NCBI GenBank assembly: GCA_020347705.1
Contig: CP070739.1
Span: 2,739,174 to 2,784,040, forward strand
From: Methanomassiliicoccales archaeon
GTDB lineage: Archaea > Thermoplasmatota > Thermoplasmata > GCA-020350865
Length of the DNA: 44,867 bases
Direction: 5' to 3'
The notes under the pieces: generated by a model
The model's input: the letters and a program-made list of their open reading frames with translations, nothing else
What the model was told of the DNA's origin: nothing
Database searches by the model: none
Part shown: positions 5,382 through 36,326 of the stretch, piece after piece
Position numbering within the stretch: position 1 is the stretch's first letter
Layout: each line of letters starts with the position of its first letter
Translations under genes and position numbers: made by a program

Positions 5382-5385
5382 TGAA

Positions 5386-6954
5386 TCACTCAGTGTGGGG
5401 GTTTTGTATCACTTTCATTTTTGGCTTAATTCTCATACCAGGCAATCTTTTCATAAATGCCATCATATTCATTCCCAAGTTCATTCCAAAGGCGGGAATT
5501 GGGATCCCGAACCTGGTCATTCCTTCTGTTGTCTTCCCGGGATTCATGATATCATGAGGGTCCATCATGGATTTAACGCTCACCATCACGTTAGCTCCGT
5601 TTGCGTGCAATTTCTTCAAGTTCGAGGCAAAGAAAATACCCAGACCAGCCGGGCGCCCACCCGCTTTAAAGGCCAAATCTCCGATTTTCTTGATGAAGGA
5701 CATGGTCATCATGGATCTGAATTTTCTTTCGTCGGTCAGGCAATAGGGCATGAACGTAACAGTGTTTCTATCTGACACCATTCCCGTTATTGCCGCCCTC
5801 AATTTCATTCTCTTTATTACCTTCGATGAACCTGTGATCATCTCATGCATTTTTGAAACTGGGATCATCCCTTCTGCAAGCACGATGGTGGGTCCAAGTC
5901 TCTTTACTCTCATCTCAAAAAAGCGCTCCTCCCATTCATGATTAGACAATTTTTTGTCTTGTTTTTCTCCACCATGCCGCCTTGCGATTATGTCCAATGC
6001 GGCTTCCTCATGGTCCAATGACACCTTGGTCCCCTCCAGGGCAAGGACTATCATGGAGTCTATCTCAGGAGTCTCTTTGCCCATTTGCCTTAGAAAATCG
6101 AAATGATTTTTGTCAAAAAATGAAATGTGTAATGGCGTTATGGTAGAACGGGTGATATCAGATATAGCTTCACACATATCTTTTGTATTAAGGAAGGTGT
6201 ATGCTATCGGACGGATTTCTTCGGGGGCTGGGTAAATCCTTAAAGTGACTTTGGTAATAATTCCCAAAGTACCCTCTGACCCAGTAAAAAATAACCGTAG
6301 GTTGTCACCGAATGAACCTGATTTCACGTTGGGACTTCCGAAAGTAATGATCTCACCTTTGGGAAGGACCATCTCAAGGGCCAAGATCTGTTTTTCCACT
6401 CCCCCGTACTTATAGGAACCTACACCAACACCACCGGTGTTGATCCAACCTCCCACCGTAGCAGCGAGGGCGCTGCTGGGATATGCTCCAATCAAATAGC
6501 CTTTTCTCAGTAAGGCCCTGTATAAATCTGCCCAAGTTATACCAGGCTCCACAGTAACGGTGAGATTTTCTTCATCAATCTCGATAATGGAGCTCATCGT
6601 GGCCAAGTCCAATACGATTCCCCCCATTACAGGCACTGCGCCTCCCAAGGCCCAGGATGCACCTCCCCTTGGGATCACCGGTAATTGTTTTTCCACGGCA
6701 AGCTTGATTATCCGGGAAACCTCAAGCGCAGTTTTCGGTCTCACGACTGCATCTGGGAGCATCTTAAATCCCATCTCCATCATTTTTGGTAGAGGAGCCA
6801 AATCATGGCCATATAACCTTCGTTCAAGTGTTTCATCACTTACTCGGGATTCGCTAACTATTTTGGCCAACGATTCGAACAGCTCGGTATGGATTATCTC
6901 TGCAGTGTCATTTTCAATTTGATTTCTCTTTTCTGCACTTGCTTCTTCAGCCAT
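5386..6954 (-). CDS. FAD-linked oxidase, GlcD/D-lactate dehydrogenase-like (PCMH-type FAD domain)
   Basis: 522 aa. Motifs seen: VIPRGGASWALGGAVP, GGWINTGGVGVGSYKYG, GSEGTLGIITK. The stop lies 4 nt from the start of the Fe-S partner. Confidence 0.8.
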   Translation of the reverse strand: MAEEASAEKRNQIENDTAEIIHTELFESLAKIVSESRVSDETLERRLYGHDLAPLPKMMEMGFKMLPDAVVRPKTALEVSRIIKLAVEKQLPVIPRGGASWALGGAVPVMGGIVLDLATMSSIIEIDEENLTVTVEPGITWADLYRALLRKGYLIGAYPSSALAATVGGWINTGGVGVGSYKYGGVEKQILALEMVLPKGEIITFGSPNVKSGSFGDNLRLFFTGSEGTLGIITKVTLRIYPAPEEIRPIAYTFLNTKDMCEAISDITRSTITPLHISFFDKNHFDFLRQMGKETPEIDSMIVLALEGTKVSLDHEEAALDIIARRHGGEKQDKKLSNHEWEERFFEMRVKRLGPTIVLAEGMIPVSKMHEMITGSSKVIKRMKLRAAITGMVSDRNTVTFMPYCLTDERKFRSMMTMSFIKKIGDLAFKAGGRPAGLGIFFASNLKKLHANGANVMVSVKSMMDPHDIMNPGKTTEGMTRFGIPIPAFGMNLGMNMMAFMKRLPGMRIKPKMKVIQNPHTE

Positions 6955-9400: not shown

Positions 9401-9547
9401 GATGTATAGGCATAAAAGGACGATAACTTATACAATAATGCCTTGAATTTTGTTAAAATCCCATTGTTAACATGGCAAAAGATTAAATTGAAGTAAAATA
9501 TTTACTCAGCAACTTCAAAATCATTGTTGACAATAGGAGACCAAACG

Positions 9548-14162: not shown

Positions 14163-14294
14163 CTTATCATCAGGAATTTGATGTATCCTTTACTATCTTA
14201 TAAATCTTTCATTTAGCGGTTGATTTATTAGAAAACGCAAAATATAAGTAAACAGAGACTATACTTTCTCGGGTTAATAATGGAGGGACAGAAC

Positions 14295-15710
14295 ATGAGT
14301 TCTGATTTGTATAAAAAAATCAAAGACATCGTAGGTGAGGATTATGTTACAGAAAGCGAATTCGAGAGGTTCTTCTACAGTAGAGACGTCTCTCCTATTC
14401 CAACTGAATTACAGGAGAAATGGGGTACGGTTCCGGATATCGTCGCAAGGCCCAAAAACGCACAAGAGGTCTCCAAAATCATGGCCGTGGCCTCTCAAAA
14501 CAAGATCCCAATCATTCCACGGGGCGGCGCTAGCTGGTGGCTAGGAGGGTCTGTACCGTACAAGGGGGGCATCGTCTTAGACTTAACGAGTATGAATAAT
14601 CTGATAGATATGGATGAAAATAACCTTACGATCACCGTCGATTGCGGAGTAACATGGAAGGAAATCGAGGATGTACTGGAAAGGCATTCCTATTTTCTTG
14701 GAACGCGCCCGGGCAGTGCAGCTTCGGCCACCGTAGGAGGATGGATAAGCACTGGAGGAGTAGGGATAGGCTCTTACAAATACGGCTCTGTCGGGGATCT
14801 CGTGAGATCACTTGAAGTAGTGCTTCCCTCGGGTGAAATAATCCAAACCCAAAACAAGGATTTGGCAGGTCATGGCTCAGGATACAATCTGAACAGGCTG
14901 TTTATCGGGAGTGAGGGAACCCTTGGTGTGATAACCAAGGCCACATTAAAAATAATCCCGAGACACGAAGCGGGGCCGTACCATGTTTCGTATGCATTCT
15001 CTGAATTAAGTGGCTGTGCCGAGGCAATAAAGAAGGTGGTTTCAAGCAGGCTGTTGCCACATCATATAGCCTTTGGGGATAAAAGGCATTTTATGTTTCT
15101 TGCGTCCATGGGGAAACCCGTGCCAGACGGGGAGATTGTGCTCTGTATTACACTAGAAGGCGAGAAGGGGATCATCGACTATGGATTGAAGAAATTGGAC
15201 GAGGAATTCACATCGACAGGAGGATGTATGAAATGCTGCGACGGAAAGTCCCACGAAGAATGCGAGGAGTGCACAATTGAATTTAGGGGAAGTAGAATTA
15301 ATGTTTATCCCGTACCAGGTGAGATATTCGTAGGATTGAACAGGTTCGAAGAAGCCCTTTCTAAAATATACGATCTTTTCGACGAGATGGGCCTTCAAGC
15401 TGGAGTTATCGGTAGTATGGTAGATAGAAGAACTACGATGATCATGCCATACTATATCCAGGAGCAAAAGGAGAGCGGAACTTTCATGGAATTCCACAGA
15501 CGGTTGGGTGAGCTTGCTCTTTCGGTTGGTGGAAGAAGGGTTGGTTTGGGATTATTCTTTTCTTCAAGTCTTTCGCATATTCACGATGAGGGAAGCGTTG
15601 CAGTTATGCGTGCGATAAAAAGGTGCATCGATCCTGGCAACATCTTAAATCCTGGAAAGACTGTGGGTGGATTCGACTTATTTGCCAGCTTGAATGACAA
15701 AAAAGGCTAG
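14295..15710 (+). CDS. FAD-linked oxidase, GlcD-like
   Basis: Motifs seen: IIPRGGASWWLGGSVP, GGWISTGGVGIGSYKYG, GSEGTLGVITK. I prefer ATG 14295 (GGAGGG 6 nt upstream) over 14280. A Cys-rich insertion is present (GGCMKCCDGKSHEECEEC). Confidence 0.8.
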   Translation: MSSDLYKKIKDIVGEDYVTESEFERFFYSRDVSPIPTELQEKWGTVPDIVARPKNAQEVSKIMAVASQNKIPIIPRGGASWWLGGSVPYKGGIVLDLTSMNNLIDMDENNLTITVDCGVTWKEIEDVLERHSYFLGTRPGSAASATVGGWISTGGVGIGSYKYGSVGDLVRSLEVVLPSGEIIQTQNKDLAGHGSGYNLNRLFIGSEGTLGVITKATLKIIPRHEAGPYHVSYAFSELSGCAEAIKKVVSSRLLPHHIAFGDKRHFMFLASMGKPVPDGEIVLCITLEGEKGIIDYGLKKLDEEFTSTGGCMKCCDGKSHEECEECTIEFRGSRINVYPVPGEIFVGLNRFEEALSKIYDLFDEMGLQAGVIGSMVDRRTTMIMPYYIQEQKESGTFMEFHRRLGELALSVGGRRVGLGLFFSSSLSHIHDEGSVAVMRAIKRCIDPGNILNPGKTVGGFDLFASLNDKKG

Positions 15711-15719
15711 GGGCAGTAT

Positions 15720-16874
15720 ATGACCAAGATTCCTGATATCGAGGAGGATTTGTTGGCATGTATTCAATGCGGGTACTGCAACGCTGTATGTCCTACCTAT
15801 GAGGAGTTCAAGTGGGAATCCGCATCCCCAAGGGGCAAAATATATTTTCTAAAACGCTTTTATTTTTTAAATATCATCGAGAAGTTCATCAAAAACCATG
15901 AATATAAACAAGGATTTGTGAAAAGCTTGTACATCTGTGCGGGCTGCGGGGCTTGTAACAAGATATGCCCTGTAAGAATAGAACTTTCACACAGGTGGGA
16001 GGAACTGAAAGAGTGGCTTTTCTTTGAGGGGTATGCGCCCATGGAGAATCATAAACCTCTTCTGGAAAGAGTCAGGGGTGTAAAAAATCCGTATAATGAG
16101 CCCATCCCAAATAGAACCAATTGGGTTCCTGAGGATGTGAAACTATCTACCAATCCAGAAATACTGTACTTTGTCGGTTGTACCGAATCGTACCGAAGAC
16201 AAGAGATAGCCTCTGCCACCGCCAGAATATTGCAGAAGGCCGATGTTGAATTTACGATCTTGGGAACTTTCGAGCAATGCTGTGGCTCCCCGCTTCTGAG
16301 GACAGGTCAAACAGATATAGTGAAAGAGGTGCTCATGCCCCAGAATATCGAGAACATGAAGAAGGTTGGAATTGAAACCGTGGTTACCGCCTGCTCGGGT
16401 TGCTTTCAAACCTTAACTAATGATTATCCCAGGGTTCTTGGCCCACTTCCCTTTGAGGTCCTGCATATATCCCAATATATAAAACGCCTATTAGATGAGG
16501 AGAAAATCCAGTTCGAAAAAGAATTTGAAAAAAAGGTTACCTATCATGATCCGTGCCATCTCGGTCGCCATGTCGGAGTTTTTGAAGAGCCGCGAAGATT
16601 GCTTACCGCAGTACCAGGTGTGGAGTTCGTTGAGATGCCGAGAAATCGCATGGGCTCAAGATGCTGCGGTGCAGGGGGAGGTTTCAAAATCGCATTCAAC
16701 GATAAGGCCACAGTCATTGCTTCAAAGAGAGTCAAAGAGGCCGTGGATACAGAAGCTGAGTGCATAATTACAACCTGCCCCTTCTGTAAGACCAACTTAA
16801 CGCACGGGGCAGAGATTATGGAAAATGGGATCCCCACCTATGATTTAATGGAACTTGTATTGAAAGTACTTTGA
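15720..16874 (+). CDS. (Fe-S)-binding oxidoreductase, GlcF/HdrD-like with two CCG domains
   Basis: 384 aa. Motifs seen: CIQCGYCNAVCP, CAGCGACNKICP, QCCGSPL, RCCGAGGGF. Confidence 0.8.
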   Translation: MTKIPDIEEDLLACIQCGYCNAVCPTYEEFKWESASPRGKIYFLKRFYFLNIIEKFIKNHEYKQGFVKSLYICAGCGACNKICPVRIELSHRWEELKEWLFFEGYAPMENHKPLLERVRGVKNPYNEPIPNRTNWVPEDVKLSTNPEILYFVGCTESYRRQEIASATARILQKADVEFTILGTFEQCCGSPLLRTGQTDIVKEVLMPQNIENMKKVGIETVVTACSGCFQTLTNDYPRVLGPLPFEVLHISQYIKRLLDEEKIQFEKEFEKKVTYHDPCHLGRHVGVFEEPRRLLTAVPGVEFVEMPRNRMGSRCCGAGGGFKIAFNDKATVIASKRVKEAVDTEAECIITTCPFCKTNLTHGAEIMENGIPTYDLMELVLKVL

Positions 16875-16978
16875 AAATAACAACAGTCTTTTTCCAAAAA
16901 CATAACACCGTTAAGTTTAAACACGACGATGTCATTCTCGTTGATATATGATTAAAAGACCAATTGGGGGGCTATTAT

Positions 16979-18304
16979 ATGGCTAAAGGTAACGATGATT
17001 TGGATAAAATTATTTCTAAAATCGTTAAGATAGTTGGCGGTTCTAACGCTGAAATCGATCCCAAGGCACCTAATAGAGCTATTGTAAGACCAAGAACTAG
17101 TGATGATGTCTGCAGAATAGTAAAGATCGCATTAAAAGAGGGTGTTCCCATCGTTCCAAATAGACATTTAATATGGGCAGTGGAGGATAAATATAGCGAT
17201 GAACATCTATTGATAAATACCCTTGATATGAATGGAATTTTCAAAATCGATGAAGAGAATTTGGCCGTAACCGTGGGACCAGGAGTTTTATGGAAGGATC
17301 TATATAAAGCACTTTTGAAAAGGGGATATTTAATAGGTGCCTATCCATTTTCTTCGATACCTACCGTTGGGGAATGGGTGGATACAGGCGGTGGGGGCAT
17401 TGGTTCTTACGGCAAAGGTTTTGCAGGGGATCAGGTCAGAACCTTGGAGGTTGTACTCCCTGATGGTAAAGTCATAAACACAGGATTCGAAAAGGTACTT
17501 TCAAACAGCTCAGGTTATAACCTCAATGGATTGTTTATTGGTGCAGAAAGCACCCTGGGAATAATCACCAAAATCACACTTAAGATATTTCCCAAGCCAG
17601 AAGAAACTCGACCTCTGTATTACACATTTTCTGAGCTAAAAGATACCACCGAAGCCCTGCGAGCCCTCACCAAAATAAAGACAACACCCATGAACATATC
17701 GTTCTTCAGCGCAAATCATCTTCAATCTTTGAAGATGTTTCGTAAGGATATTCCAGATCTCAAGGGTGTCGTAATGAATGTAACTTTAACAGGCCTAAGA
17801 TCTGTAGTAGATCACGAGGAGGAAAACATCGATGCGATAATGAAAGGGCACAACGCAATAAAGGTGAGCAGCGATATTGCCAAGGTCCTATGGAGGGAAC
17901 GATTCTTTGAGGTACCATCCACTCGGGCCGGGATTAGACCTGTTTTTTTCGAGGCCTTAATTCCTGCATCCAAGCTCTATGAGATGGCAAACGGTACCTA
18001 CTCCCTCATTGGTAAAATTAAGCAAAAGGCAGCTATCATAGGAATACTTTGTGACAGAAGTACGGTCCTCTTGATACCATATCTATTATCCGAGAAATCA
18101 TCCACCAAAAAATCGAGGATGCCAGCGGTTTTTGCACAAAAGTATGGGGAGTTGGTTGTCAAACACGGGGGAAGACCTATTGGTACGACGATGTCCTTGA
18201 TCTCAGGTATAAAACAGGTCAATGGTGAGGAATTAAACACCATTCTGGATATCAAATCCGCAATAGATCCTCATGACATAATGAATCCTTACAGATTTAT
18301 TTGA
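16979..18304 (+). CDS. FAD-linked-oxidase-like protein with a degenerate FAD motif (GlcE-like)
   Basis: It appears by eye to share domain order and several motif positions with the two GlcD-like proteins (GEWVDTGGGGIGSYGKG, GAESTLGIITK). The PRGGASW segment is replaced by VPNRHLIWAV. I prefer ATG 16979 (GGGGGG upstream) over the TTG at 16964. Confidence 0.65.
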   Translation: MAKGNDDLDKIISKIVKIVGGSNAEIDPKAPNRAIVRPRTSDDVCRIVKIALKEGVPIVPNRHLIWAVEDKYSDEHLLINTLDMNGIFKIDEENLAVTVGPGVLWKDLYKALLKRGYLIGAYPFSSIPTVGEWVDTGGGGIGSYGKGFAGDQVRTLEVVLPDGKVINTGFEKVLSNSSGYNLNGLFIGAESTLGIITKITLKIFPKPEETRPLYYTFSELKDTTEALRALTKIKTTPMNISFFSANHLQSLKMFRKDIPDLKGVVMNVTLTGLRSVVDHEEENIDAIMKGHNAIKVSSDIAKVLWRERFFEVPSTRAGIRPVFFEALIPASKLYEMANGTYSLIGKIKQKAAIIGILCDRSTVLLIPYLLSEKSSTKKSRMPAVFAQKYGELVVKHGGRPIGTTMSLISGIKQVNGEELNTILDIKSAIDPHDIMNPYRFI

Positions 18305-20470: not shown

Positions 20471-22546
20471 ATGGATATAGGGACGGTTCTGTTGTATATT
20501 TCCCTTATATTGGCTATACTGGCGGGAGCGTTGGCAATTATCGACCTGATATTCAATAAAAAGGGCATTAGCAGATTCTCAGAAGAGCTCCCCTTATACG
20601 CGAAATTGGCCTCCATATTCCTTTTTGTAATGGTCACGGGGGCACTACTGCTCCTTTATGTTTATTTTATCACTTCAAACATGAATATAAAATATGTGTG
20701 GGAATATTCCTCAAAATCTTTACCCATGGAATACAAGATCTCTGGGGTTTTGGCCGGTATGGCAGGCTCCCTGTTATTCTGGATATGGTGTATGGCCTTC
20801 AGTTGGTTTGTGGAGGAGATCAAGGATTTTAGAAGACCAAAAAACGGTATTTTGATGGGTTTGACGAGGGCAACTATGATGATTATAATATCAATATTCC
20901 TATATTTTTTAATAATAAGGGATCTCTTTGAAGAAACCCCTCAAAACTATATTAACGCCATGCCGGAGGGGCAAAGTTTGAACCCGCTCCTTCAGACGCC
21001 CCTTATGATAGTTCATCCGCCTATCGTATTTTTAGCCTATGGTTTTATGGTCATATGTCTGGCCTCCGCCATGGCCTATCTCATCTGCAATGATAAAAAC
21101 TGGGTCAAACTTTCCATGCCCTGGAGCAGGTGGGCCTGGCTCTTTTTAACCCTGGGCATCGGTATCGGTGGGCTATGGGCCTATGTCGTTCTCGGATGGG
21201 GCGGATATTGGGCCTGGGATCCGGTTGAGACCTCCTCGTTCCTGCCTTGGTTATTACTCACTGCATTATTACATGCCCAACTTATGTTCAAAAGGAAGGG
21301 AGATTATAGATTAGCGGCACCGGCCTTGGGGATATTCACATTCGTTATGGTGATTTTCGCAACGTTCACCACCAGGGCGGGAGGGATTTGGCTGTCAGTT
21401 CATGCCTTCGGTGAGGCGGATGTGAATGTAAGTGCATACGATAGGTTCGTGGATGTTGTGACATCCGATAACATCATCCTGGGTTATTTTATTCTGATGA
21501 TAGGATTGACGATTATAGGGATAATCCTCCTGTTGTTTGCTTTAATGAGAATTGGGGAATCAGAGGAAGATAGCAATTCCGAGTCAAAACGCAATATCTT
21601 GGAGGATATAATAAACGATAAGTCCCTGATGTTCATCACCCTGATCCTGTTCACCATAACCACAATTGTTACACTGCTTCTTTTGATTATGGCCATCAAC
21701 GGTGTCGATAGAATGCAGTTCGATACCAAGGTGGGAATTTTCGCCATTATCGGAATAATAGTGCTGGTTTTCTGTCTTGCTTGGAAATATTTGGGTCGAA
21801 GAACCACCTCATATTCAGTTCTCCTTGCAGGTGTGGTATCGCTTGTATTGGGAATTGCCATGCCAGATCAATGGATGGTGGGTGTGACATTCCCCTTTTT
21901 GGCACTGGCCGTGGTTGCATCCATTTACAAAATAATAAAATCCATTAATCCCAAGAGCCTCAGGGCAAGTATCAATAAAACGGCACCGCATATCGTTCAT
22001 TTAGGTGTGGTTTTTATTATAATAGGTTTTGTTGGCAGTAATTTTTTGGTGACGGAGAAGGATATCACCCTAGTAAGAAATGGCCAGGCTGAAAAAGTAG
22101 GGGATTATGAGTTCAAAATGGTGGATGGCAGATATTCCGCTGGAGACCATTTTTATGTTACCATTGAGATTTTACGAGATGGAAACGTGGTGGCCACATC
22201 AGAGCCTGGGGCGATTTACCTGGAAGATCAATGGCGGAACGAAATTGCTGTTTCCGCAATGCCCACAGAGGATGTCTACATCATTTTCGTTGATGCAGAT
22301 GCAGAAGGCAGTACTGTGACGAACGCGAATTTGCAGGTGAAAATATTACCCCTGATGAATGTGCTTTGGCTCGGTATGTGGCTTCTTGCCATCGGGATAT
22401 TGATGAGATTGATAGTAGAGTTAAGTAGATCAAAAAAGAAAACCGAAAAAAGGGTGGAGATAAGAGCAAAAACAAGGAGTGAAATGCAAAAGACCCAGGA
22501 ATATTATGAATCCCTGATCGAAAAAGAACTAGAAGAGATGAAATAG
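20471..22546 (+). CDS. ccmF: Cytochrome c-type biogenesis protein CcmF (System I heme lyase)
   Basis: 691 aa and polytopic. The WWD signature is GWGGYWAWDPVETSSFLPW. An upstream VHPPIVFLAYG motif is present. Confidence 0.85.
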   Translation: MDIGTVLLYISLILAILAGALAIIDLIFNKKGISRFSEELPLYAKLASIFLFVMVTGALLLLYVYFITSNMNIKYVWEYSSKSLPMEYKISGVLAGMAGSLLFWIWCMAFSWFVEEIKDFRRPKNGILMGLTRATMMIIISIFLYFLIIRDLFEETPQNYINAMPEGQSLNPLLQTPLMIVHPPIVFLAYGFMVICLASAMAYLICNDKNWVKLSMPWSRWAWLFLTLGIGIGGLWAYVVLGWGGYWAWDPVETSSFLPWLLLTALLHAQLMFKRKGDYRLAAPALGIFTFVMVIFATFTTRAGGIWLSVHAFGEADVNVSAYDRFVDVVTSDNIILGYFILMIGLTIIGIILLLFALMRIGESEEDSNSESKRNILEDIINDKSLMFITLILFTITTIVTLLLLIMAINGVDRMQFDTKVGIFAIIGIIVLVFCLAWKYLGRRTTSYSVLLAGVVSLVLGIAMPDQWMVGVTFPFLALAVVASIYKIIKSINPKSLRASINKTAPHIVHLGVVFIIIGFVGSNFLVTEKDITLVRNGQAEKVGDYEFKMVDGRYSAGDHFYVTIEILRDGNVVATSEPGAIYLEDQWRNEIAVSAMPTEDVYIIFVDADAEGSTVTNANLQVKILPLMNVLWLGMWLLAIGILMRLIVELSRSKKKTEKRVEIRAKTRSEMQKTQEYYESLIEKELEEMK

Positions 22547-23350: not shown

Positions 23351-25474
23351 TTAAATTTCTTCTTCCTCACCTTCTTCCATTGGAGCCTCTTCTTCTGCCC
23401 CAGTTTCCTCAACTGGTTCCTCTTCTGCAGGAGCTTCCTCTTCTACGGCCTCCTCAGGCTCGGGCTCTGGTTCAGGTTCCGGTGTCGGGGCAGGTGCCCC
23501 TTTGCCTTTCATAACAAAAAGCAATCCAAGAAGCACGATGACTATTATGAGAACAATGATTATTACCAGGTAGATCATGTTGTCCTCCTCTTCATCGTCC
23601 TCTTCTCCCGTCTTCTTGAAGTCGTTAGCATCCTGGGGATCGGTCTGGTCCATGTACTCCTGATAGTTGGTCATTCCGTCATTGTCGTCATCCTCATAGG
23701 CATCACTCGGGTCTTTTGGATCTAGGCTATTATTCGTCTCCCATGAATCAGGGAGACCATCGTTGTCGTCATCCGTGTCTGTTGAATCTGGGGTGCCGTC
23801 ACCGTCGAAGTCAGGAGCCAAAGTGAAGTCCTGCTTGGTAACTCCTGGGGCAGTAATAACCACATCAGAGGCTGACTGCTCAATGGTTCCGGCCTTGATT
23901 GCCGTCACGGTGTAAGTGCCGGGTGCCAGGGTAAGTGTATAGGTCCCGTCTGATGCAGTTTTTGTGCCGTGACCGTTTACCGATATGTAAACGTCCGCTA
24001 TTCCGGCATTTGACTCGTCCGTTACATTGCCTTTGAGGACGCCCACGCTGAGTTCCTCGATAATCTCCGTTAAATTTAATTTAGCGGCGTTCAAAAGGGC
24101 TATTCCGTATGCCGGGTTGTGTGAACCCGTTGATGCATGATCCGCAAGCTCCCAGTCATATTCCGCCTGCTCGAACAGCTCCTCCAAGTGTTCGGTCCAG
24201 GTACCGTTCTCATCAGCTTTGTCCATTAATCCTCTTTGTATTATATTATGATCGTCATCCTCAATACCTGCAATAATATCGATGAGACCGGAAACCTCTT
24301 CATTCAGCTTTTTATGTCTTTCCTGCGCTGCCTCGACTACCTCATGCCATTGTGTATAGTTTTCGTCATAATATGTCTCCCAGGCGGTCCAATTTACAGT
24401 ATCAGTTGTTTTTGGAATGTCCTCAAATATGGTTGAGTGGCACTCCAGGCAAGCATCGATTGTTGCTTCAAAGCCGTGGCCAACATGCTCATATTCAGTG
24501 CCCCGCAAATCTCGGGAAGAGCTCCACATATGGCATTCGGCGCAAGTGACCTCCTCCATGTATGGATAATCGGTGCGGTTGACAGAGGGTTCACTATTGA
24601 GTTCTGCTGTTCTCATGGTTTCGTGATGACCGCCGTTGTGGCATGCATCACATACTTCCTCTAGTTCCCACCTCAATTGATATTCATGGGTGTTATCGGG
24701 GTCGGGATGAGGATCGTGGCAGTCACCGCAGGTGATGCCCCTATATTCTGCTTTGGGGATATCATCATTTACTGTTCTGTTTGTGGTGGGATCCCATTGA
24801 GAAGGCGATTTGCATCTCGCACAGTAGTTGTTCATTCCATCGTCCTCTTCAGGATCATTTTCCCATGGTGCATGCAAAGAAACATTCCATCCTGATATCG
24901 ATTCATTTCCCCACTGGCGGTATCCTCCATGGCATTCAGCTTGGGCTGTACCACCGCATGCTTCATAATATCTATCAGGTCCAAGGTTGATGGTGTTTTT
25001 GGACGCTGTACCTGGTGGTGAAGGTGCATGCCCGCTTCCAGGTCCGTGGCAGTTCTCGCAGCCGATTCTCAAGAGCTTTGAGTTGTTCGTGCTGTTCCAC
25101 ACTTCATCAGGATCGAAACCACCGATATCTGTCTCGTTGTATCCAACAACGTGACATATCGCACAATCGCCAGGTAAATCGTCGCTGGCATTCTCATATA
25201 CATGGGGTGCGACTTCTTCCATAATATATTTGTTTAAATAGTTACCACGGTAGGTCCAATTATTGGCAAAATCTATAGCATGCGCGGTCTCGGACCAATT
25301 TACATATTCATTGGTTGTGGATGCATGTTTGCAGCCATTGCATACTTCAGAGCCAACATATGTTTCTCCGGCCCTTGTGCCTCTTTCTTCATCCGAATCT
25401 GCAGCGGCAACAATTGCGATCACGGCAACAATAGCTAAAATGCCGAATATCAATACTGCGTTTCGCCTGTTCAT
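23351..25474 (-). CDS. Surface multiheme c-type cytochrome with CarboxypepD_reg-like domain, Asp-rich Ca-binding-type repeats, C-terminal TM anchor and acidic tail
   Basis: 707 aa with an N-terminal signal/anchor. Heme motifs: 6 CXXCH, 2 CXXCK (CNGCK, CARCK) and 1 CX7CH. A beta-sandwich-like segment is present (GNVTDESNAGIADVYISVNG...YTVTAIKAG). Repeats of the form DGDGTPDSTDTDDDNDGLPDSWE and DDDNDGMTNYQE follow. A TM helix (IYLVIIIVLIIVIVLLGLLFV) precedes a Pro/Glu-rich tail. Confidence 0.9.
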   Translation of the reverse strand: MNRRNAVLIFGILAIVAVIAIVAAADSDEERGTRAGETYVGSEVCNGCKHASTTNEYVNWSETAHAIDFANNWTYRGNYLNKYIMEEVAPHVYENASDDLPGDCAICHVVGYNETDIGGFDPDEVWNSTNNSKLLRIGCENCHGPGSGHAPSPPGTASKNTINLGPDRYYEACGGTAQAECHGGYRQWGNESISGWNVSLHAPWENDPEEDDGMNNYCARCKSPSQWDPTTNRTVNDDIPKAEYRGITCGDCHDPHPDPDNTHEYQLRWELEEVCDACHNGGHHETMRTAELNSEPSVNRTDYPYMEEVTCAECHMWSSSRDLRGTEYEHVGHGFEATIDACLECHSTIFEDIPKTTDTVNWTAWETYYDENYTQWHEVVEAAQERHKKLNEEVSGLIDIIAGIEDDDHNIIQRGLMDKADENGTWTEHLEELFEQAEYDWELADHASTGSHNPAYGIALLNAAKLNLTEIIEELSVGVLKGNVTDESNAGIADVYISVNGHGTKTASDGTYTLTLAPGTYTVTAIKAGTIEQSASDVVITAPGVTKQDFTLAPDFDGDGTPDSTDTDDDNDGLPDSWETNNSLDPKDPSDAYEDDDNDGMTNYQEYMDQTDPQDANDFKKTGEEDDEEEDNMIYLVIIIVLIIVIVLLGLLFVMKGKGAPAPTPEPEPEPEPEEAVEEEAPAEEEPVEETGAEEEAPMEEGEEEEI

Positions 25475-26851: not shown

Positions 26852-27334
26852 TCAATACTTCGAGGGGCAGCCCACCTGAATCGGATGATTTGATCTGAAC
26901 GTTAAAACACCATCAACATTTTCGAGCTTTCCTTTTACCACCACGTCCTTACCCTCCTCAAATCCGTCGGGTAAGGCCTTTTCGTGGACCACGAACATTT
27001 CAACTGATTCATTGTCTCTACCGACAAGAGTAAAGTTTTGACCACCGGTCCAGTTGCCCACCTTTCCGATAACCTCAACCTCTTTTCCTATATAAGAATC
27101 ACTATTTTCAACAACCTCTTCCATTGTCAAATAATCTCCAGGGGCGGCACCCCAAAGGACAATTATCAATGCCACAGAAATGATTGCCACAACGATCAAC
27201 ACCTTGTTTCTTTTGGAGGAAAGACCTTTTCGCTTCTTCTTCGATTTGGGTTCATCCAATGATTCCGATGAAGAGTCAATTTCGTTTCCTTTATCATCAG
27301 CATTTTCTTCTATTGTTTCATCACTTTCGCTCAT
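26852..27334 (-). CDS. ccmE: Cytochrome c maturation heme chaperone CcmE, CxxxY variant
   Basis: 160 aa. A single TM anchor precedes an OB-fold-like segment (VEVIGKVGNW...FTLVGRD...VVVKGKL). The C-terminus is VGCPSKY, that is Cys-x3-Tyr in place of the bacterial His-x3-Tyr. Confidence 0.8.
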   Translation of the reverse strand: MSESDETIEENADDKGNEIDSSSESLDEPKSKKKRKGLSSKRNKVLIVVAIISVALIIVLWGAAPGDYLTMEEVVENSDSYIGKEVEVIGKVGNWTGGQNFTLVGRDNESVEMFVVHEKALPDGFEEGKDVVVKGKLENVDGVLTFRSNHPIQVGCPSKY

Positions 27335-27470
27335 TCTTTTTCACCATCTCTTCTAGTAATTTCAGATCCTTTGATAGCTTCATTTGCTTCATATGCAGGT
27401 AGGCCAAATAGCCGAATAATCCCGCCCAGATGATCGTATATGCAAGGTATAACGCTTCTAGTTCACCCAT
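27321..27470 (-). CDS. ccmD: Heme exporter protein CcmD (small single-TM protein, below the ORF-track cutoff)
   Basis: My reverse-strand translation is MGELEALYLAYTIIWAGLFGYLAYLHMKQMKLSKDLKLLEEMVKKNERK (49 aa). Its ATG overlaps the ccmC stop (TAATG). Its 3' end overlaps the ccmE start by 14 nt. Position and shape match ccmD. Confidence 0.7.
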   Translation of the reverse strand: MGELEALYLAYTIIWAGLFGYLAYLHMKQMKLSKDLKLLEEMVKKNERK

Positions 27471-28171
27471 TATAACCCTCCTATCTTTTCTTTCAGATCT
27501 TCGATTTTTGATGTCATTTCGATTATATTCAATCGTTTTTTCAATATAAATAAATAAAGAAAGGTAAAGGCAACAACACCTGCTAAAAGACCCATTCCCG
27601 TCTCAGCTGACATCGAACCCTCGCTCGTGGCAACCACATTTGGATGCATACTCTGCCATATCCTAGAAGAAACGAATGATAACGGTACGCACACAAAGCC
27701 GATGATACCAAATATGGCCGCCAATCGAGATTTGTCCTCGCTTTCCACGCCGCCTCTTAAAACCAAATAGGCCACAAATATCAGCCAGAGGACGAATGTT
27801 ATTGTTAACTTCGTATCTTCCCAACGCCAGTACACACCCCACTCCGCACTTCCCCATATAGGGCCTGTTACTATGGCCAGGGTGCAGAAGACCACGCCAA
27901 CCTCAGCTGAAGCGAAGGCCAAATCATCCCATTTTTTTAAGCCTTTAGCAAGGTAAAGTATGCTCATGATAAAAACGACTCCGAAGGCAAGAAACGAAAC
28001 CCATGCGGCCGATACATGGAAATAAAATATCTTCTGTGCCTTTGGTGCGTTCCACCCGGGATCATCGACAACTGGTGTATAAATCAGGGCCATGTAAATG
28101 GCAAGTAGTACGAATACAAGGGCTAGTACCAAAACCATTGTATCCATTTTTTTATCGAATTTCATTTTCAT
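27470..28171 (-). CDS. ccmC: Heme exporter protein CcmC
   Basis: 233 aa and polytopic. The Trp-rich motif is GPIWGSAEWGVYWRWEDTKLT. Flanking His residues are present (FHVSAAW, MHPNV). Confidence 0.85.
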   Translation of the reverse strand: MKMKFDKKMDTMVLVLALVFVLLAIYMALIYTPVVDDPGWNAPKAQKIFYFHVSAAWVSFLAFGVVFIMSILYLAKGLKKWDDLAFASAEVGVVFCTLAIVTGPIWGSAEWGVYWRWEDTKLTITFVLWLIFVAYLVLRGGVESEDKSRLAAIFGIIGFVCVPLSFVSSRIWQSMHPNVVATSEGSMSAETGMGLLAGVVAFTFLYLFILKKRLNIIEMTSKIEDLKEKIGGL

Positions 28172-28851
28172 TCCTCGAGTACAAAGTCGAACAGAAGATA
28201 TGCTAAGGCGATATATATCACAGCGAACATTCCCAGTATTCTCAATTCGGGTATCGCATCAAGGATGTTGCCCTCCAAGGCCTTGGAAGTGGCGTTTATC
28301 GATGGCATTAACACTGTTAATAATATTACCGGTATTAATAATATTGGTATGAGCACCCCTCGGATGGACCTAGAATTTACCGCGATGCCGGATACCAGTG
28401 TTCCTGATATAACAAAAGAAAAGGTGCCTAGCAGTACCACTATGAGAACTGGTATGATATTTCCGTTATAGTCATATGAAAAAAACATGGTAAAGAATAT
28501 AACAGAGGAGATGTCCACGAGAAGGATCAAAAAGTAGTTGGATATGATTTTGCCGAAATAAATCGCTGACCTGTCCATGGGACATAGCATAAGGCCATCC
28601 AAAGAGCCGCGGTCCTTTTCCTTTGAAAAAGAGGTATGAAGCCCGAACATACCAGCAAAGCAAAAGGTAATCCATAAAATCGGGGGAACCAAAGGCTCGA
28701 GTTTCTCTTGACCTATACTATAGAAATAAAACGCGAAATAAAAGGCCACCATAATGAACAGAGAAAAAATGAACATGGAGAAGATCATCTCCTTGGTTCG
28801 AAACTCGGTCTTTATATCCTTTTTCGCTATGGTAAGCGCCTGGCCCATCAT
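28168..28851 (-). CDS. ccmB: Heme exporter permease CcmB
   Basis: 227 aa and about 6 TM helices. The N-terminus is typical of CcmB (AKKDIKTEFRTKEMIFSMFIF). It has 4-nt ATGA overlaps with both neighbours. Confidence 0.8.
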   Translation of the reverse strand: MMGQALTIAKKDIKTEFRTKEMIFSMFIFSLFIMVAFYFAFYFYSIGQEKLEPLVPPILWITFCFAGMFGLHTSFSKEKDRGSLDGLMLCPMDRSAIYFGKIISNYFLILLVDISSVIFFTMFFSYDYNGNIIPVLIVVLLGTFSFVISGTLVSGIAVNSRSIRGVLIPILLIPVILLTVLMPSINATSKALEGNILDAIPELRILGMFAVIYIALAYLLFDFVLEE

Positions 28852-29558
28852 CGCTGTGCCTCCATCAGGCCGTGATATTTCTCTTTGAAGCCCTCCAAAT
28901 CCATATCCGACTTTTTTGAATCGAAAGCTATCCTCCCATTAACCAATATCAAGAGTCTTTCTCCAATTTTGTGCCCAAGCTCAACGTTATGCGTTATCAA
29001 GAAAATCGTTTTCCCCTGCTTGTGAAATTTCATCAGCATATCGGTTACCGTCCCCCATGCTTTAAAGTCAAGGCCCGTGTAGGGCTCGTCCAAAAGAAGG
29101 ACAGGAGGATTGTGAAGAACCACCCTCGCCACTGCAGCCCTCTGTTTCATGCCCCTTGAGAACTGCCCAACTCTATCGTTCAATCTGTGGAGAAGGCCTA
29201 TATCATCTGCAGTAGCCTTGATCGTCTTTTCATCCTTTTTTAGACCGTACATTCTCGAATAGAAGAAAAGATTCTCTCTGAGAGTCAGATCGTCATATAA
29301 AAATGGATTATGGGATAGAACCCCTATGCTGTTCCTCACATCGATTGATTCCTCTGCCAGGTCAAATCCATTGATGACAACCTTTCCAGAGGTGGGTCTC
29401 GAAAGGGTGGATAATATTCTTATCAGTGTAGTTTTTCCGGCGCCGTTAGGCCCGAACATCACCACGAACTCGCCTTCTGTTACCTCCAAATTCAGGTCGT
29501 TTAAAACCTTCTTTCTTCCATATCTTTTTTGGAGACTTTTTAGAGAGATTATGGACAT
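28848..29558 (-). CDS. ccmA: Heme exporter ATP-binding protein CcmA (ABC ATPase)
   Basis: 236 aa. Walker A is GPNGAGKTT, the signature-like motif is FSRGMKQR, and Walker B is LLLDEP. Confidence 0.85.
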   Translation of the reverse strand: MSIISLKSLQKRYGRKKVLNDLNLEVTEGEFVVMFGPNGAGKTTLIRILSTLSRPTSGKVVINGFDLAEESIDVRNSIGVLSHNPFLYDDLTLRENLFFYSRMYGLKKDEKTIKATADDIGLLHRLNDRVGQFSRGMKQRAAVARVVLHNPPVLLLDEPYTGLDFKAWGTVTDMLMKFHKQGKTIFLITHNVELGHKIGERLLILVNGRIAFDSKKSDMDLEGFKEKYHGLMEAQR

Positions 29559-33412: not shown

Positions 33413-34444
33413 ATGGAGAATAAAACCGAGATGGGGCTTCTGCTCATAATTTTTGGATTGATATTGAGTATAATTTCCACCCTAGGAAGTGTTGCAACAG
33501 GGGATTTTGGAGGGACTTCTGTTTCTGCAAGTGCCATAATACCAGCTATTTTTGGCTTCTTAGCATTTATCTTGCTATTGGTTGGCTGGATACTTATGAT
33601 GTTGGGCAGGAAGGAATTCGGAGAGGAACACGCCCAGTTCACGATGTACTCATTAGTTGCATTCATTGTGGGTTTTATCGTAGTCATAATTGGCGGAATT
33701 ATTATGGCCTTTGGAATGATGGCTGGAGGTTTAGGAAGTATAAGTACCGAGGAAACTGTGGATTACCCTGCCATGGCAAGGGGCATGATGACAGGATTGA
33801 TAATCTCACAAATAGGTGGTATAATTTTTACCCTGGGTGCCATACTACTGGTCTTCCGTCTTGAAAATGAGGTGGGTATAAAAATTCTCTATCTAGCCTT
33901 GATAGTCTCAATAATTATTGCTATTGTGAGTATAATACTCATTTCATCTGCGGTAAATGACCTTGCAAACAAGTTGGAGGAAACACCTGAAGATCAACAA
34001 GAGGACGAATTTCTTGAGGGTTTAAGCGGACTCAGTTATTTAAATGGCATAGCCATTATTGGAACCTTATTGCTGTTGATAGGTTATTACATACCATATG
34101 ATAGGATCAAAAAGGGTGAACTGAAACCAGTTATGCTCCCTACCCAACCTTACGGTGCACCACCGTATCCTGCACAATACCCATACCAACCATATCTACC
34201 TTATCAACCTGGACCGTACCAGCAACCACCTTATCAGCAGCCCTATCCACCACAGTACCCCCCACAGCAACCACCGGTTACTCCCCCGGAAGGAGGAACA
34301 CCACCCTCTCAACCTCCAGCAGGCGTACCAGTGCAGCCAAAAGAGGTTCCCAGGGAAACTGCTGAGGTCATAAGCTGCAGGTTCTGCAATACCCAGATTC
34401 CTAAGGGAAGCATTGTCTGCCCTGTTTGTCAGAAAGAGCTTTAA
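33413..34444 (+). CDS. Polytopic membrane protein with a Pro/Gln/Tyr-rich linker and C-terminal zinc ribbon
   Basis: 343 aa with about 6 hydrophobic helices. An approximately 80-aa low-complexity tract is present (PYPAQYPYQPYLPYQPGPYQQPPYQQPYPPQYPPQQPP...). The protein ends CRFCNTQIPKGSIVCPVCQKEL. Confidence 0.6.
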   Translation: MENKTEMGLLLIIFGLILSIISTLGSVATGDFGGTSVSASAIIPAIFGFLAFILLLVGWILMMLGRKEFGEEHAQFTMYSLVAFIVGFIVVIIGGIIMAFGMMAGGLGSISTEETVDYPAMARGMMTGLIISQIGGIIFTLGAILLVFRLENEVGIKILYLALIVSIIIAIVSIILISSAVNDLANKLEETPEDQQEDEFLEGLSGLSYLNGIAIIGTLLLLIGYYIPYDRIKKGELKPVMLPTQPYGAPPYPAQYPYQPYLPYQPGPYQQPPYQQPYPPQYPPQQPPVTPPEGGTPPSQPPAGVPVQPKEVPRETAEVISCRFCNTQIPKGSIVCPVCQKEL

Positions 34445-34462: not shown

Positions 34463-34906
34463 TGCGGGGGAAGGGTGTTTAAGATATAATTGATGTAAAA
34501 TTATAACATCCACTGACACGCATGTAATACAAGCGTTCCCGAATTTAAATATATGTGGCTAAGGGTGCGGGGGATGTGGATGTTTAAGACATAATTGATA
34601 TTAAATTATAACATCCACTGACACGCATCGAATCTAATTATAAACCAATTAAAGATGCGGGGGAAGGGTGTTCAAGCTTAAGATACGAGTGATGTACAGG
34701 CATAACTTGAACACGAGTCCCCTGCACTGTATTTAATTATATTAAAAAAGGAAGTGCGGGGGAAGGGATTCGGGACCTAAAACTTTTTGAGGCTCACCTG
34801 CGCTGGCTCATGCTCCTCAAAAAGTTTCAGTCATCCAAAAACCTCGCATGAACCTGCTCGGTTCGCATATCAGTAAACAATTAAAGATGCGGGGGAAGGG
34901 ATTCGA
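34463..34906 (-). repeat. Five partial direct copies of the tRNA-Leu 3' end, each joined to a different hairpin-forming spacer
   Basis: The + strand string TGCGGGGG... is the reverse complement of the tRNA-Leu acceptor 3' strand plus discriminator. It starts at 34463, 34566, 34656, 34755 and 34888, and at 35016 in the intact gene. Identity with the gene copy extends 13, 9, 13, 18 and 19 nt respectively. Confidence 0.8.
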
Positions 34907-35015
34907 CACGGATAGAAAGCTTACTTCAGATTACTATTATCTCTGCTTTCATCCTATCGAACCCCTATCAATTTAATTTCAATTGTAATCCCCCTTAAAT
35001 TATAAAATAATGAAA

Positions 35016-35140
35016 TGCGGGGGAAGGGATTCGAACCCTTGAACCACTTCTGGACAGGATGTCCAAACCAGCGCAATGATTGAACCCTTACACCTTGGAT
35101 CTTAAGTCCTGCGCCGTTGGCCAAGCTTGGCTACCCCCGC
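35016..35140 (-). tRNA. tRNA-Leu (anticodon UAA) with a 40-nt intron at the canonical 37/38 position
   Basis: The reverse strand reads GCGGGGG TA GCC AAGCTTGGCCAAC GGC G CAGGA CTTAAG [ATCCAAGG...TTTGGAC] A TCCTG TCCAGAAGTGGTTC AAGGG TTCGAAT CCCTT CCCCCGC A. All four stems pair, a long class II variable arm is present and the discriminator is A73. No CCA is encoded. Confidence 0.85.
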
Positions 35141-35250
35141 TTCAAAGCGGATACCATCGCTGGGGATAGCCAAGCTCGCTCCGTAGACAAACCAATGGTT
35201 TGTCGAGGCGCAGAGGTGACTTTAGGTCGCCTCAGTGTGGCTACCCCCGC
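35141..35250 (-). ncRNA. Unclassified structured element that begins with a copy of tRNA-Leu positions 1-12
   Basis: The reverse strand is GCGGGGGTAGCC + 98 nt. A 10-bp closing stem (GGGGGTAGCC/GGCTATCCCC) encloses two hairpins: GAGGCGAC..GTCACCTC and GACAAACC-ATT-GGTTTGTC. It abuts the tRNA-Leu 5' end and does not fold as a tRNA. Strand and expression are not established. Confidence 0.3.
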
Positions 35251-35417
35251 ATTGTAGGAACAATGCACGGTTCGAAGGTATACCCTTAAAGGTTTTTTGT
35301 TTTTTCTATGGATATATCGAGTTATAAATGATGTTGATAAGACCAATCCTACCAAAATTTAAATATCTCTACCCGCCATTAGGGATATTACCCGCTAAAA
35401 TCAAAGAGGGGGAGAAT

Positions 35418-36326
35418 ATGTCTCTTAATCTCGATTTAACGAAGCTGAAACATGGCACGGAATTGCTGAAAAGAGGATTTGCTAAGATGCAAAAAGGCGG
35501 CGTGATCATGGACGTCACCAATGCCGAGCAGGCAGGCATCGCGGAGAATGCTGGTGCAGTGGCTGTGATGGCGCTGGAGCGCGTTCCGGCGGATATCCGA
35601 GAAGCAGGTGGGGTGGCCAGGATGGCCGACCCCAAGGTAATCCAAGAGATCATTGATGTCGTCACGATACCTGTTATGGCAAAGGTGAGGATCGGCCATT
35701 TTGTAGAAGCCCAGGTATTAGAATCTTTAGGTGTGGACATGATAGACGAATCAGAGGTTCTTACGCCCGCGGATCCGTTCTACCATGTGGATAAAACCAA
35801 ATTCACCGTGCCCTTCGTCTGCGGCGCAAGGGATTTAGGTGAGGCATTAAGAAGGATCTCCGAGGGCGCTGCAATGATACGCACCAAAGGTGAAGCAGGC
35901 ACAGGCAATGTCATCGAAGCCGTGAGGCATCAAAGGCTGATCATGGGTCAGATCAGAGAACTTTTGGGAAAAGATAACGAGGAGATGACCTCTATTGCGA
36001 GGAAGATCGAGGCACCAATACAGCTCGTAAAAGAGGTGGCCGAACTGCAACGTTTGCCTGTGGTGAATTTCGCGGCTGGAGGAATAGCAACGCCTGCGGA
36101 CGCGGCCATGATGATGCAGTTGGGTAACGATGGAGTCTTTGTGGGCTCGGGGATATTCAAGTCCTCGGAACCTGAACCAAGGGCCAAGGCCATCGTTGAA
36201 GCGGTAACACATTTTAATGATCCCAAAGTGATAGCAGAGGTTTCTCGGGGGCTGGGAGGAGCCATGCGAGGTATTGAGATATCCGAGATTCCAAAGGACC
36301 AGAGGCTACAGGAGAGGGGATGGTAA
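35418..36326 (+). CDS. pdxS: Pyridoxal 5'-phosphate synthase lyase subunit PdxS
   Basis: I prefer ATG 35418 (GGGGGAG upstream; [33 protein letters not shown]...). The sequence looks close to other PdxS proteins along its length, for example [15 protein letters not shown] and [12 protein letters not shown]. Confidence 0.9.

Follow-up and report, generated by a model that had tools for sequence, protein, structure and literature searches.

What are partial copies of the ends of a tRNA gene doing beside the intact gene? The question is raised by a stretch of 44,867 nucleotides (nt) of contig CP070739.1 from a Methanomassiliicoccales archaeon, called the window in what follows. On its plus strand the sequence TGCGGGGG starts at 34463, 34566, 34656, 34755, 34888 and 35016, with spacings of 103, 90, 99, 133 and 128 nt. 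The last of these starts is the real 3′ end of the tRNA-Leu(UAA) gene, which occupies 35016-35140 on the minus strand, and the other five belong to truncated copies in an array downstream of that gene. Units are named by their position in the array and read on the strand of the tRNA, with U5 nearest the tRNA and U1 farthest from it; the length matching the tRNA gene, in order from U1 to U5, is 13, 9, 13, 18 and 19 nt. A first-pass annotation had given these positions, spacings and match lengths, and all are reproduced by reading the sequence and counting the motif: TGCGGGGG occurs eight times in the window against 1.18 expected, and none of 100 shuffles reaches eight. Its array of five units stands for the 3′ side; a sixth module, U0 (35141-35251), which lies upstream of the tRNA, had been overlooked.

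By sequence comparison, the locus is a vertically inherited, clade-specific cluster of structured modules around tRNA-Leu(UAA), one in the 5′ leader and up to five in the 3′ flank. Across related genomes the modules are conserved, their helices covary, their order is fixed and they are lost at the repeats. We give a probability of about one half to the reading that the modules are RNAs of the tRNA strand, freed by RNase P and tRNase Z as the t-elements of plant mitochondria are, and with functional inner domains. A family of small RNAs mimicking tRNA ends was among the alternatives offered at first pass, and it is the one that the comparative data favour.

The tRNA gene and its modules

The Rfam tRNA model scores 42.4 bits on 35016-35140 (E 8.6e-06), in agreement with the earlier assignment of the copy at 35016 to a real tRNA. 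ARAGORN with default settings makes no call for this gene; aragorn -i calls tRNA-Leu(taa) with an intron, which is 42 nt long and follows position 37. The gene, source of the copied ends, encodes no CCA, and neither do the units. RF00005 matches only 35016-35140, even at E values up to 10, so the units form no canonical tRNA cloverleaf, and aragorn -i finds no tRNA in them. A canonical tRNA gene or pseudogene was accordingly rejected for the units, which have no match to the tRNA covariance model. The intron of the tRNA holds a T-arm-like AAGGGTTCA, kept in all relatives, with variants in the distant relatives L071 and L080 (related loci are cited by such numbers).

The first-pass annotation took the hairpins for spacers between the copies. 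The copied end is in fact part of the fold: in U3, in U5 and weakly in U2 the outer helix joins a 5′ strand of the GCxGGGG kind to the copied CCCCCGCA, which corresponds to the acceptor stem and discriminator base of the tRNA. This closing helix has 7 base pairs (bp) plus A in U3 and 5-6 bp in U5, is weak in U2, is doubtful in U4 and is lost in U1. The repeat begins in the T-loop or T-stem in U4 and U5 and ends at the discriminator base. All the direct repeats lie downstream of the intact gene in the same orientation, and measure 9-19 nt here and up to 23 nt in L096 and L097. The T-arm motif GGTTCRANYCC is complete in U5 of L096, L097 and L101, where U5 carries the whole T-arm and 3′ strand as a 23-nt block; U5 and U4 of the window have only its 3′ part, and U3 to U1 lack it. 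With an acceptor helix and discriminator A, and in U5 also the T-arm region, U3, U5 and weakly U2 therefore resemble a minihelix-like ‘top half’ of a tRNA built on an unrelated inner structure. Not every unit folds as had been supposed. Scores against shuffled sequences uphold a hairpin for U3 (z -6.1), U5 (-5.0) and U4 (-4.1), as well as for U0 (-4.1), give a weak one for U2 (-2.35) and deny it to U1 (-0.25).

U5 (34888-35015, minus strand, as are all the modules) consists of a conserved trailer (35015-34995), a GGGGGA 5′ strand (34994-34989) and, after a linker, a long helix; the 19-nt copy of the tRNA from T-loop to 3′ end (34906-34888) supplies the 3′ strand of that helix. Its helices are the acceptor-like one of 5-6 bp and a second of 10-12 bp. 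The 5′ strand of the latter is antisense to the T-loop and T-stem of the tRNA, and it tracks the T-loop variant of L095 (UUUGAA with UUCAAAU). The unit encloses a conserved, invariant hairpin, GAUGAAAG..CUUUCUAUC. Orthologues are present in L096, L097, L101, L095 and L086; the 3′ strand of the L086 copy has decayed, and its pairing persists via G-U.

U4 (34755-34887) ends in the 18-nt copy of the tRNA 3′ end (34772-34755), which forms a tail, its conserved helix being internal. Helix P1 pairs 34866-34846 with 34813-34792. Helix A (repeat I2) pairs 34828-34815 with 34792-34779 and is interleaved with P1, the linkers being 0-2 nt; the predicted helices thus could not both form fully, and U4 may be bistable. 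The loop closed by P1 (34845-34829) contains a conserved, U-rich, Sm-site-like GGUUUUUGG (GAUUUUUGG in L086), a possible site for Sm-like archaeal proteins (SmAP/Lsm).

U3 (34656-34754) begins with a 28-nt AT-rich spacer, followed by a 71-nt hairpin (34726-34656) with arms of 21 nt (repeat I1). The hairpin comprises the 7-bp acceptor-like helix GCAGGGG/CCCCCGC with its A, a 4x4 internal loop and a helix of 9-11 bp, and has AUCUUAAG in its loop; its tRNA-end copy is 13 nt. In L096 and L097 the corresponding helix of U3 is perfect over its 7 bp (GCGGGGG/CCCCCGC) and is followed by A. U2 (34566-34655; repeats D2 and D3) is a paralogue of U3 (E 0.008 with an nhmmer profile of U3); its acceptor-like closure is weaker, and its tRNA-end copy is 9 nt long. 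The U2-family units of L085 and, partial, of L096 share a near-identical 29-nt spacer, the same length as that of U2. U1 (34463-34565) is a chimera of U2 and U3, with a body that is 94% identical to U2 over 48 nt (blastn) and a final 17 nt that match the end of U3 exactly; since its hairpin is disrupted, it is probably decaying. The resemblance of units 1 and 2, judged by eye at about 85% over some 60 nt, comes to 89% over 56 nt. The companion statement that the intervening sequences are otherwise unrelated needs amending for unit 3, which is also akin (76% over 29 nt, and the nhmmer match). Units of the U1-U3 type contain (A/G)UCUUAA(G), at 34676-34684 and equivalent positions and in the relatives too. 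It is the complement of the anticodon loop CUUAAGA, with the palindromic core CUUAAG, and may mark a site of contact or be inherited from a tRNA ancestor.

The leader module U0 (35141-35251; repeats D9 and I6) lies between a promoter-like block and the tRNA. The first 13 nt of the tRNA (35128-35140) recur as the 5′ arm of the module (35250-35238); two inner hairpins follow, and then a 15-nt 3′ arm (35176-35162) that is antisense to the 5′ end of the tRNA. The fold has an energy of -49 kcal/mol. Orthologues in five related species (L096, L097/L098, L101, L092 and L093) are 79-88% identical, and U0 includes an invariant block of 24 nt. When a stretch of 793 nt is folded, the minimum-energy structure pairs the 3′ arm of U0 with the real 5′ end of the tRNA, over about 17 bp, and not with its own 5′ arm. 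Beyond U0, towards pdxS, a near-invariant block GGTATACC..GGTTTTTTGTTTTTTCTAT (35270-35304) is nearly unchanged in L085, L086, L092, L095, L096, L097, L099 and L101. Judged by its composition, it could serve the tRNA strand as an A-rich region near a promoter, the plus strand as an oligo-T terminator, or both strands in these ways.

Relatives, inheritance and constraint

The neighbouring gene pdxS (35418-36326) gives an entry to the relatives. Its product is at most 84% identical to those of species representatives, all of them metagenome-assembled genomes of Methanomassiliicoccales or Thermoplasmata, and a large protein collection holds a closer clade of PdxS proteins at 87-91% identity. Related loci were taken from the contigs of eight proteins of this clade and from a metagenome scan with the tRNA-intron motif. 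A genome scan based on pdxS returned only relatives of at most 84% identity, with no tRNA beside pdxS, and exact-protein look-ups for PdxS (with two starts), for a 343-residue open reading frame and for PurD returned no contig.

The orthologous tRNA-Leu is found in ten independent assemblies, and adjoins pdxS wherever the fetched contig includes that gene. Nine of the ten carry subsets of the units, in constant order, and one carries none. Reading from the tRNA outward, the window has units 5, 4, 3, 2 and 1 in addition to leader U0. Leader U0 is accompanied by units 5, 3 and a partial 2′ in L096, by 5 and 3 in L097, by 5 in L101 and by 4 in L092/L094; L093 has two U0-like modules and unit 4. 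Without a leader module are L095 (5, 3 and a 1-like unit), L086/L087 (5 and 4) and L085 (2′ only, followed by an AbiEi/AbiEii pair). L099/L100 has the tRNA with neither leader nor units, and the distant L071 and L080 have an intron-containing tRNA and no units. The order of units is unviolated in every locus that has them. Comparison of the locus between relatives, which the first-pass annotation had proposed, thus reveals presence/absence variation of whole units across the ten assemblies. Its worry that the repeats are an assembly artefact can be set aside, because the units differ from each other and independent assemblies carry orthologous arrays. Profile searches of 1.4 Mb of fetched DNA and of the 44.8-kb window find the units nowhere beyond the tRNA-Leu locus.

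Neutral divergence between these genomes is exhausted. At four-fold degenerate sites, taken from the pdxS, purD, FKBP-type, S19e and membrane-protein genes, the window is 26-45% identical to every relative, which is saturation. Between relatives the units are 64-89% identical overall, a range that U5 spans in full (64-89%); U4 of the window is 86.4% identical to that of L092 over 110 nt and 83.7% to that of L086 over 104 nt. Because the units remain this similar while four-fold sites are saturated, they are, on this comparison, under purifying selection. Unit identity also tracks the nucleotide identity of pdxS pair by pair: 88.6% for U5 and 90.3% for pdxS between L096 and L097 (76.6% at pdxS third positions), 82.5% and 82.6% between L096 and L101 (57.8%), and 71.1% and 76.1% between the window and L096 (45.9%). 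Judged by these identities, the units are old and vertically inherited, and they diverge at roughly the slow pace of DNA encoding a highly conserved protein. That fits neither neutral scars nor a recent spread by horizontal transfer.

Helices are maintained as well as sequences. U3 helix 2 is 100% paired among four species, and its three varying adjacent pairs all show two-sided changes (4, 2 and 2 pair types), the variants being UUCAAG/CUUGAA, UCAAAG/CUUUGA, UUUGAG/CUCAAA and UCUGAG/CUCAGA. U4 P1 has two-sided changes in 10 of its 18 pairs. For the whole U4 structure, P1 with helix A, none of 500 shuffles reaches the observed score, and pairing drops from 87% to 35-47% in slid controls. A test of covariation, also proposed at first pass, thus returns compensatory changes in all three varying pairs of U3 helix 2 and in 10/18 pairs of U4 P1. 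As to strand, the same pairs of U5 read on the minus strand include 7 G-U against 2 A-C, and those of U4 include 5 G-U against 0 A-C; the consensus folding energy (alifold) of U4 is -27.5 on the minus strand and -18.7 on the plus strand.

Units come and go at the repeats. PdxS of L085 and L096 are 98% identical, and in L085 the tRNA is directly followed by the spacer and unit that in L096 come after U3; U5 and U3 have therefore been removed exactly between direct repeats. Whole units would generally be lost via recombination between direct repeats, and new ones would arise by duplication or unequal exchange within the array, as for U2 and U1. Homogenisation with the tRNA is incomplete, since unit ends follow the 2:71 pair of the tRNA in U4 of L086 and U0 of L101, and do not in U4 of L092 and U5 of L101. 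The repeats probably originated by duplication of tRNA-Leu or by old integrations of the T-loop type. Duplication is fitted by the U3 family, which keeps acceptor strands, the T-stem CCUU and the anticodon-loop core CUUAAG in tRNA order. An integration origin is fitted by the U4 and U5 repeats, which run from T-loop or T-stem to discriminator, and by the presence or absence of whole units exactly at the repeats.

Traces of mobile elements were sought around the array. No integrase, transposase or other recombinase domain is encoded in the window, in accord with the earlier remark that no integrase is nearby, and no recombinase is among the called genes around the related arrays. The first-pass annotation had also suggested comparing the spacers with viral and plasmid data. 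Scans of viral contigs with U4, U5 and U0 motifs and blastn of the units against phage and plasmid collections give no match; the 18-mer of the tRNA-Leu 3′ end occurs in four viral contigs, only in unrelated tRNA-Leu(CAA) genes or in a partial copy of one.

Known RNA families fare no better. Rfam 15 assigns the units to no family, other matches being at chance level (E 0.6-6) and far below threshold. Guide RNAs of the C/D-box or H/ACA kind were rejected, as the ends lack C/D boxes and read GCA, a pseudouridylation pocket would not fit in the 4x4 internal loop of U3, and Rfam has no match. Defining motifs or partner genes are absent for K-turn, bulge-helix-bulge (BHB)/split-tRNA exon, signal recognition particle and RNase P readings, and likewise for those as transfer-messenger RNA (tmRNA)-like, CRISPR, TnpB-omega/bridge-RNA or T-box-like elements. 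A conserved small open reading frame in U5 and U4 was also rejected: the start MKGD... is kept, and its length and stop are not.

Readings of the array

On the favoured reading, transcription of the tRNA strand would yield the modules as RNAs, mostly as extensions of the tRNA-Leu transcript. The tRNA-processing enzymes would then release them, RNase P on the 5′ side and tRNase Z past the discriminator, possibly with CCA addition afterwards. U0, for its part, is closed by its copy of the tRNA 5′ end paired with the complement of that copy. The inner parts would carry the function: in U4 a long, possibly bistable helix system and the U-rich site, in U5 the invariant hairpin and in U3 the loop. 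Transcription, strand, processing and any function are what we infer here from the structure and conservation of the modules.

The nearest analogues are the t-elements of plant mitochondria. There, tRNA-like elements and acceptor-stem-like stem-loops are known to direct cleavage by RNase P and RNase Z (Forner et al. 2007, PMC1920247), and t-elements cut by these enzymes can persist as stable small RNAs (PMC1920247). Like our units, these are short structures that derive from parts of a tRNA or resemble them (the acceptor stem and sometimes GGTTCRANYCC) within longer transcripts, which for our units are presumed. However, t-elements are dispersed and set mRNA ends, whereas the units are archaeal and are stacked in order on both sides of the tRNA that they imitate; the units also copy exact tRNA ends and have conserved inner structures, and their cleavage is a proposal.

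Other top-half mimics share the plan. Minihelices, viral tRNA-like structures and the tRNA-like domain of tmRNA resemble the units in placing an acceptor helix, with or without a T-arm, on a body that is not a tRNA, and they can recruit tRNA enzymes. A tRNA-like element 5′ of the 5S rRNA of Haloferax is another. We know of no top-half mimic that occurs as a multi-member array beside its model tRNA, and to our knowledge archaea have no tmRNA. An RNA cut from a tRNA-Leu trailer, as proposed here, has a precedent in 3′ETS-leuZ of Escherichia coli, a functional RNA from the 3′ external spacer of tRNA-Leu. Unlike the units, it is a single unstructured sponge for small RNAs and does not mimic tRNA ends. 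The arrangement as a whole has, as far as we know, no described equivalent, and falls within a broad class already known, that of structured elements resembling or derived from tRNA; a literature search for an archaeal equivalent found none.

A more specific proposal is tentative, and in our estimate falls well short of even odds. The units might be undescribed archaeal small RNAs derived from tRNA-Leu, top-half mimics with the exact acceptor and T-arm of their parent. They would use, or compete for, the machinery of tRNA maturation and recognition: RNase P, tRNase Z, the CCA-adding enzyme, and possibly leucyl-tRNA synthetase or toxins that target acceptor ends. Specialised inner domains, such as the bistable U4 with its Sm-site-like U-tract and the U3 family showing the anticodon-loop complement, would with U0 make up a regulatory operon sensing or controlling tRNA-Leu(UAA).

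Several observations weigh against processed RNAs of the tRNA strand. The unit of L085 matches the U3 profile at E 6e-08 when inverted and at 0.03 directly; its loop has therefore flipped between the arms, an event easier to accept in a DNA palindrome than in a sequence-specific RNA loop. The units are dispensable, with none in L099 and with U0, U5 and U3 lost from L085. For U3 and U0 the plus strand gives folds as good or better, which leaves their strand ambiguous by energy. With 4-6 sequences per family, the covariation statistics are thin, and correction of quasi-palindromes at the DNA level could mimic compensatory change. Initiation and termination raise further difficulties: TATA-like boxes in the 29-nt AT-rich spacers are 12-23 nt from the arms, too near for a transcript that includes the 5′ arm, while T4-T6 runs follow most units and two T5 runs within U4 on the minus strand could halt an archaeal polymerase. 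So the units are not cleanly explained either by promoters of their own or by full co-transcription.

The modules could instead belong to the tRNA precursor, as folding switches acting in cis, in which antisense segments and decoy copies together set the maturation of tRNA-Leu; they would be regulators and not independent small RNAs. Each flank has an antisense element that a decoy copy could neutralise: upstream, the 3′ arm of U0, directed at the 5′ end of the tRNA, and downstream, the 5′ arms of U5, directed at its T-arm and 3′ strand. The arrangement is symmetric, copy-antisense-tRNA upstream and tRNA-antisense-copy downstream. The pairing of about 17 bp between the U0 3′ arm and the real tRNA 5′ end in the 793-nt fold agrees with this, as do the U5 antisense arm that follows the T-loop variant of L095 and the two mutually exclusive conserved helices of U4. 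Nevertheless we find it unlikely, though worth holding in view: minimum-energy folds of long sequences are unreliable, the distal U4, U3 and U2 are separated from the tRNA by hundreds of nt, the proximal modules are missing from L099 and L085, and a pure decoy leaves conserved inner parts, such as the 24 invariant nt of U0 and the loop of U4 P1, without explanation. Should the RNAs come from the plus strand, each would start with 9-23 nt antisense to the tRNA-Leu 3′ end joined to a hairpin scaffold, making up a guide-like or antisense set. The folding of U3 and U0, as good or better on that strand, would suit such a set, and an AT-rich box precedes every TGCGGGGG on the plus strand; a conserved terminator-like T6GT6 run (35286-35298) lies just past the tRNA and U0. 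But those boxes are 16-25 nt upstream, so that transcription would begin within the antisense segment; the minus strand is favoured by U4 and U5, and the domain search of the window found no partner protein gene for guide-like RNAs near the array. We think a plus-strand set quite improbable.

Explanations at the level of DNA begin with the direct repeats from T-loop or T-stem to discriminator, exactly where whole units are gained and lost. These could be the mark of miniature hairpin cassettes inserted serially at an attachment (att) site in the T-loop or 3′ end, their folded DNA being recognised by a remote recombinase, as in attC sites or in miniature inverted-repeat transposable elements (MITE) and repetitive extragenic palindromic (REP) sequences. 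Inverted repeats TGCGGGGG..CCCCCGCA bound each unit, and others like them enclose U0, which can equally be read as a unit facing the other way; L085 has a unit with a flipped loop, and U3 is better conserved in structure than in sequence. Yet all loci with units keep one order, divergence tracks the hosts and so leaves no recent spread, the window has no recombinase, and there are no copies in the 1.4 Mb or in viral, phage and plasmid data; RNA is indicated by the interleaved helices of U4 and by one strand having more G-U than A-C pairs. We consider such cassettes improbable, and the elements mobilised in trans that the first-pass annotation had considered are unlikely because order is fixed, inheritance vertical and no copies exist elsewhere in the DNA searched. 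Still less probable to us are palindromes without function, kept up through quasi-palindrome correction by template switching and through short gene-conversion tracts copied from the tRNA gene. Their arms form inverted repeats, loop flips like that of L085 are typical of hairpin-associated inversions, U1 is a U2/U3 recombinant, and unit ends follow tRNA 2:71 in U4 of L086 and U0 of L101. Such correction would not, however, explain conserved unpaired segments (U4 GAGGUUUUUGGAUGACU, U5 AGAU, U3 AUCUUAAG, the U0 linkers), ends that do not follow the tRNA in U4 of L092 and U5 of L101, or the slow overall divergence. Lowest of all we place neutral relics with incidental hairpins, either tRNA 3′ fragments displaced when viruses or plasmids integrated serially and then decayed, or tRNA-Leu pseudogenes in tandem that have themselves decayed. 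Displaced tRNA fragments at island ends are indeed a product of integrases (PMC4383910; PMC9897764), the match length rises toward the gene (13, 9, 13, 18, 19), U1 appears decayed, and the locus is a rearrangement hotspot in relatives (the AbiE pair in L085; varied neighbours in L086, L096, L097 and L101). Neutral sites are saturated, though, and yet the units are 64-89% identical with invariant blocks of up to 24 nt; compensatory changes maintain the helices, and neither element remnants nor integrase fragments in the window nor viral matches were found. The graveyard of att scars proposed at first pass is on these grounds unsupported as an account of the present state.

Two known kinds of array are instructive beside these readings. 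Displaced tRNA fragments mark island ends in the Islander collection (PMC4383910), and such fragments are described in Thermococcaceae (PMC9897764). The att fragments (attL/attR) of tyrosine-integrase islands, tandem island arrays included, resemble the units as direct tRNA 3′ repeats in one orientation downstream of the intact gene, with starts in the T-loop or T-stem as in U4 and U5 and with block-wise presence and absence. The units differ in being about 100 bp long, without cargo, integrase or viral match, and in being orthologous despite saturated divergence and subject to selection; they are also closed by an inverted repeat copy, and have a 5′-end counterpart, U0, upstream. Integron arrays likewise have short ordered units, imperfect palindromes, structure conserved above sequence and a common core at the boundaries. 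Our units have no integrase, attI or cassette open reading frames, their order is fixed and vertical, and their core is a tRNA end of 9-23 nt. An integron cassette array was rejected: neither the domains of the window nor the called genes of related loci include an IntI-type integrase or any other recombinase.

A short displaced 3′ end of a tRNA is routinely taken for a scar of integration and used to delimit islands; here such ends mark conserved elements under selection, and direct repeats of 13-23 nt drive the block-wise loss and reshuffling of small non-coding units between species. Should the modules prove to be RNAs, archaea would have the first ordered and conserved set of mimics of tRNA ends to be described beside the tRNA that they copy. 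The modules would then offer a natural system for the sharing of tRNA enzymes with non-tRNA substrates, or for decoying by such substrates, and for the birth of small RNAs from tRNA genes.

Genes around the array

Rearrangements concentrate on the far side of the array, where the neighbour genes of L086, L096, L097 and L101 are not the same. Just past the single unit of L085, positions 3676-5508 contain the AbiEii/AbiEi toxin-antitoxin pair, an open reading frame of 151 residues and two 37-nt direct repeats (..acctgttttttgcaggt..); a hairpin of a similar kind stands at the start of L093. In the window, the convergent gene at 33413-34444 encodes a membrane protein of 343 residues with a P/Q/Y-rich tail, a C-terminal CxxC..CxxC and no Pfam family. 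An orthologue lies beside the array in L092 and L095, and not in L096, L097 or L101. L094 has an NN gap and a duplicated 5′ piece of the tRNA at 1430-1480; this looks like a scaffolding artefact confined to that assembly, the near-identical L092 being without it.

Elsewhere in the window, genes for multihaem c-type cytochromes (MtrC/NapC-like) and a maturation set (CcmA/B/C/E-like and ResB-like) occupy 9524-12175, 20471-22546, 23351-25474 and 26852-29558, a cytochrome content unusual for a Methanomassiliicoccales-related archaeon. Repeated pairs of genes for an FAD-linked oxidase (FAD_binding_4/FAD-oxidase_C) and a CCG/4Fe-4S (HdrD-like) protein are found at 4170-6954 and 14280-18304. A third FAD-linked oxidase gene stands beside the second pair, and together these are paralogous modules of the lactate/glycolate-oxidase type.

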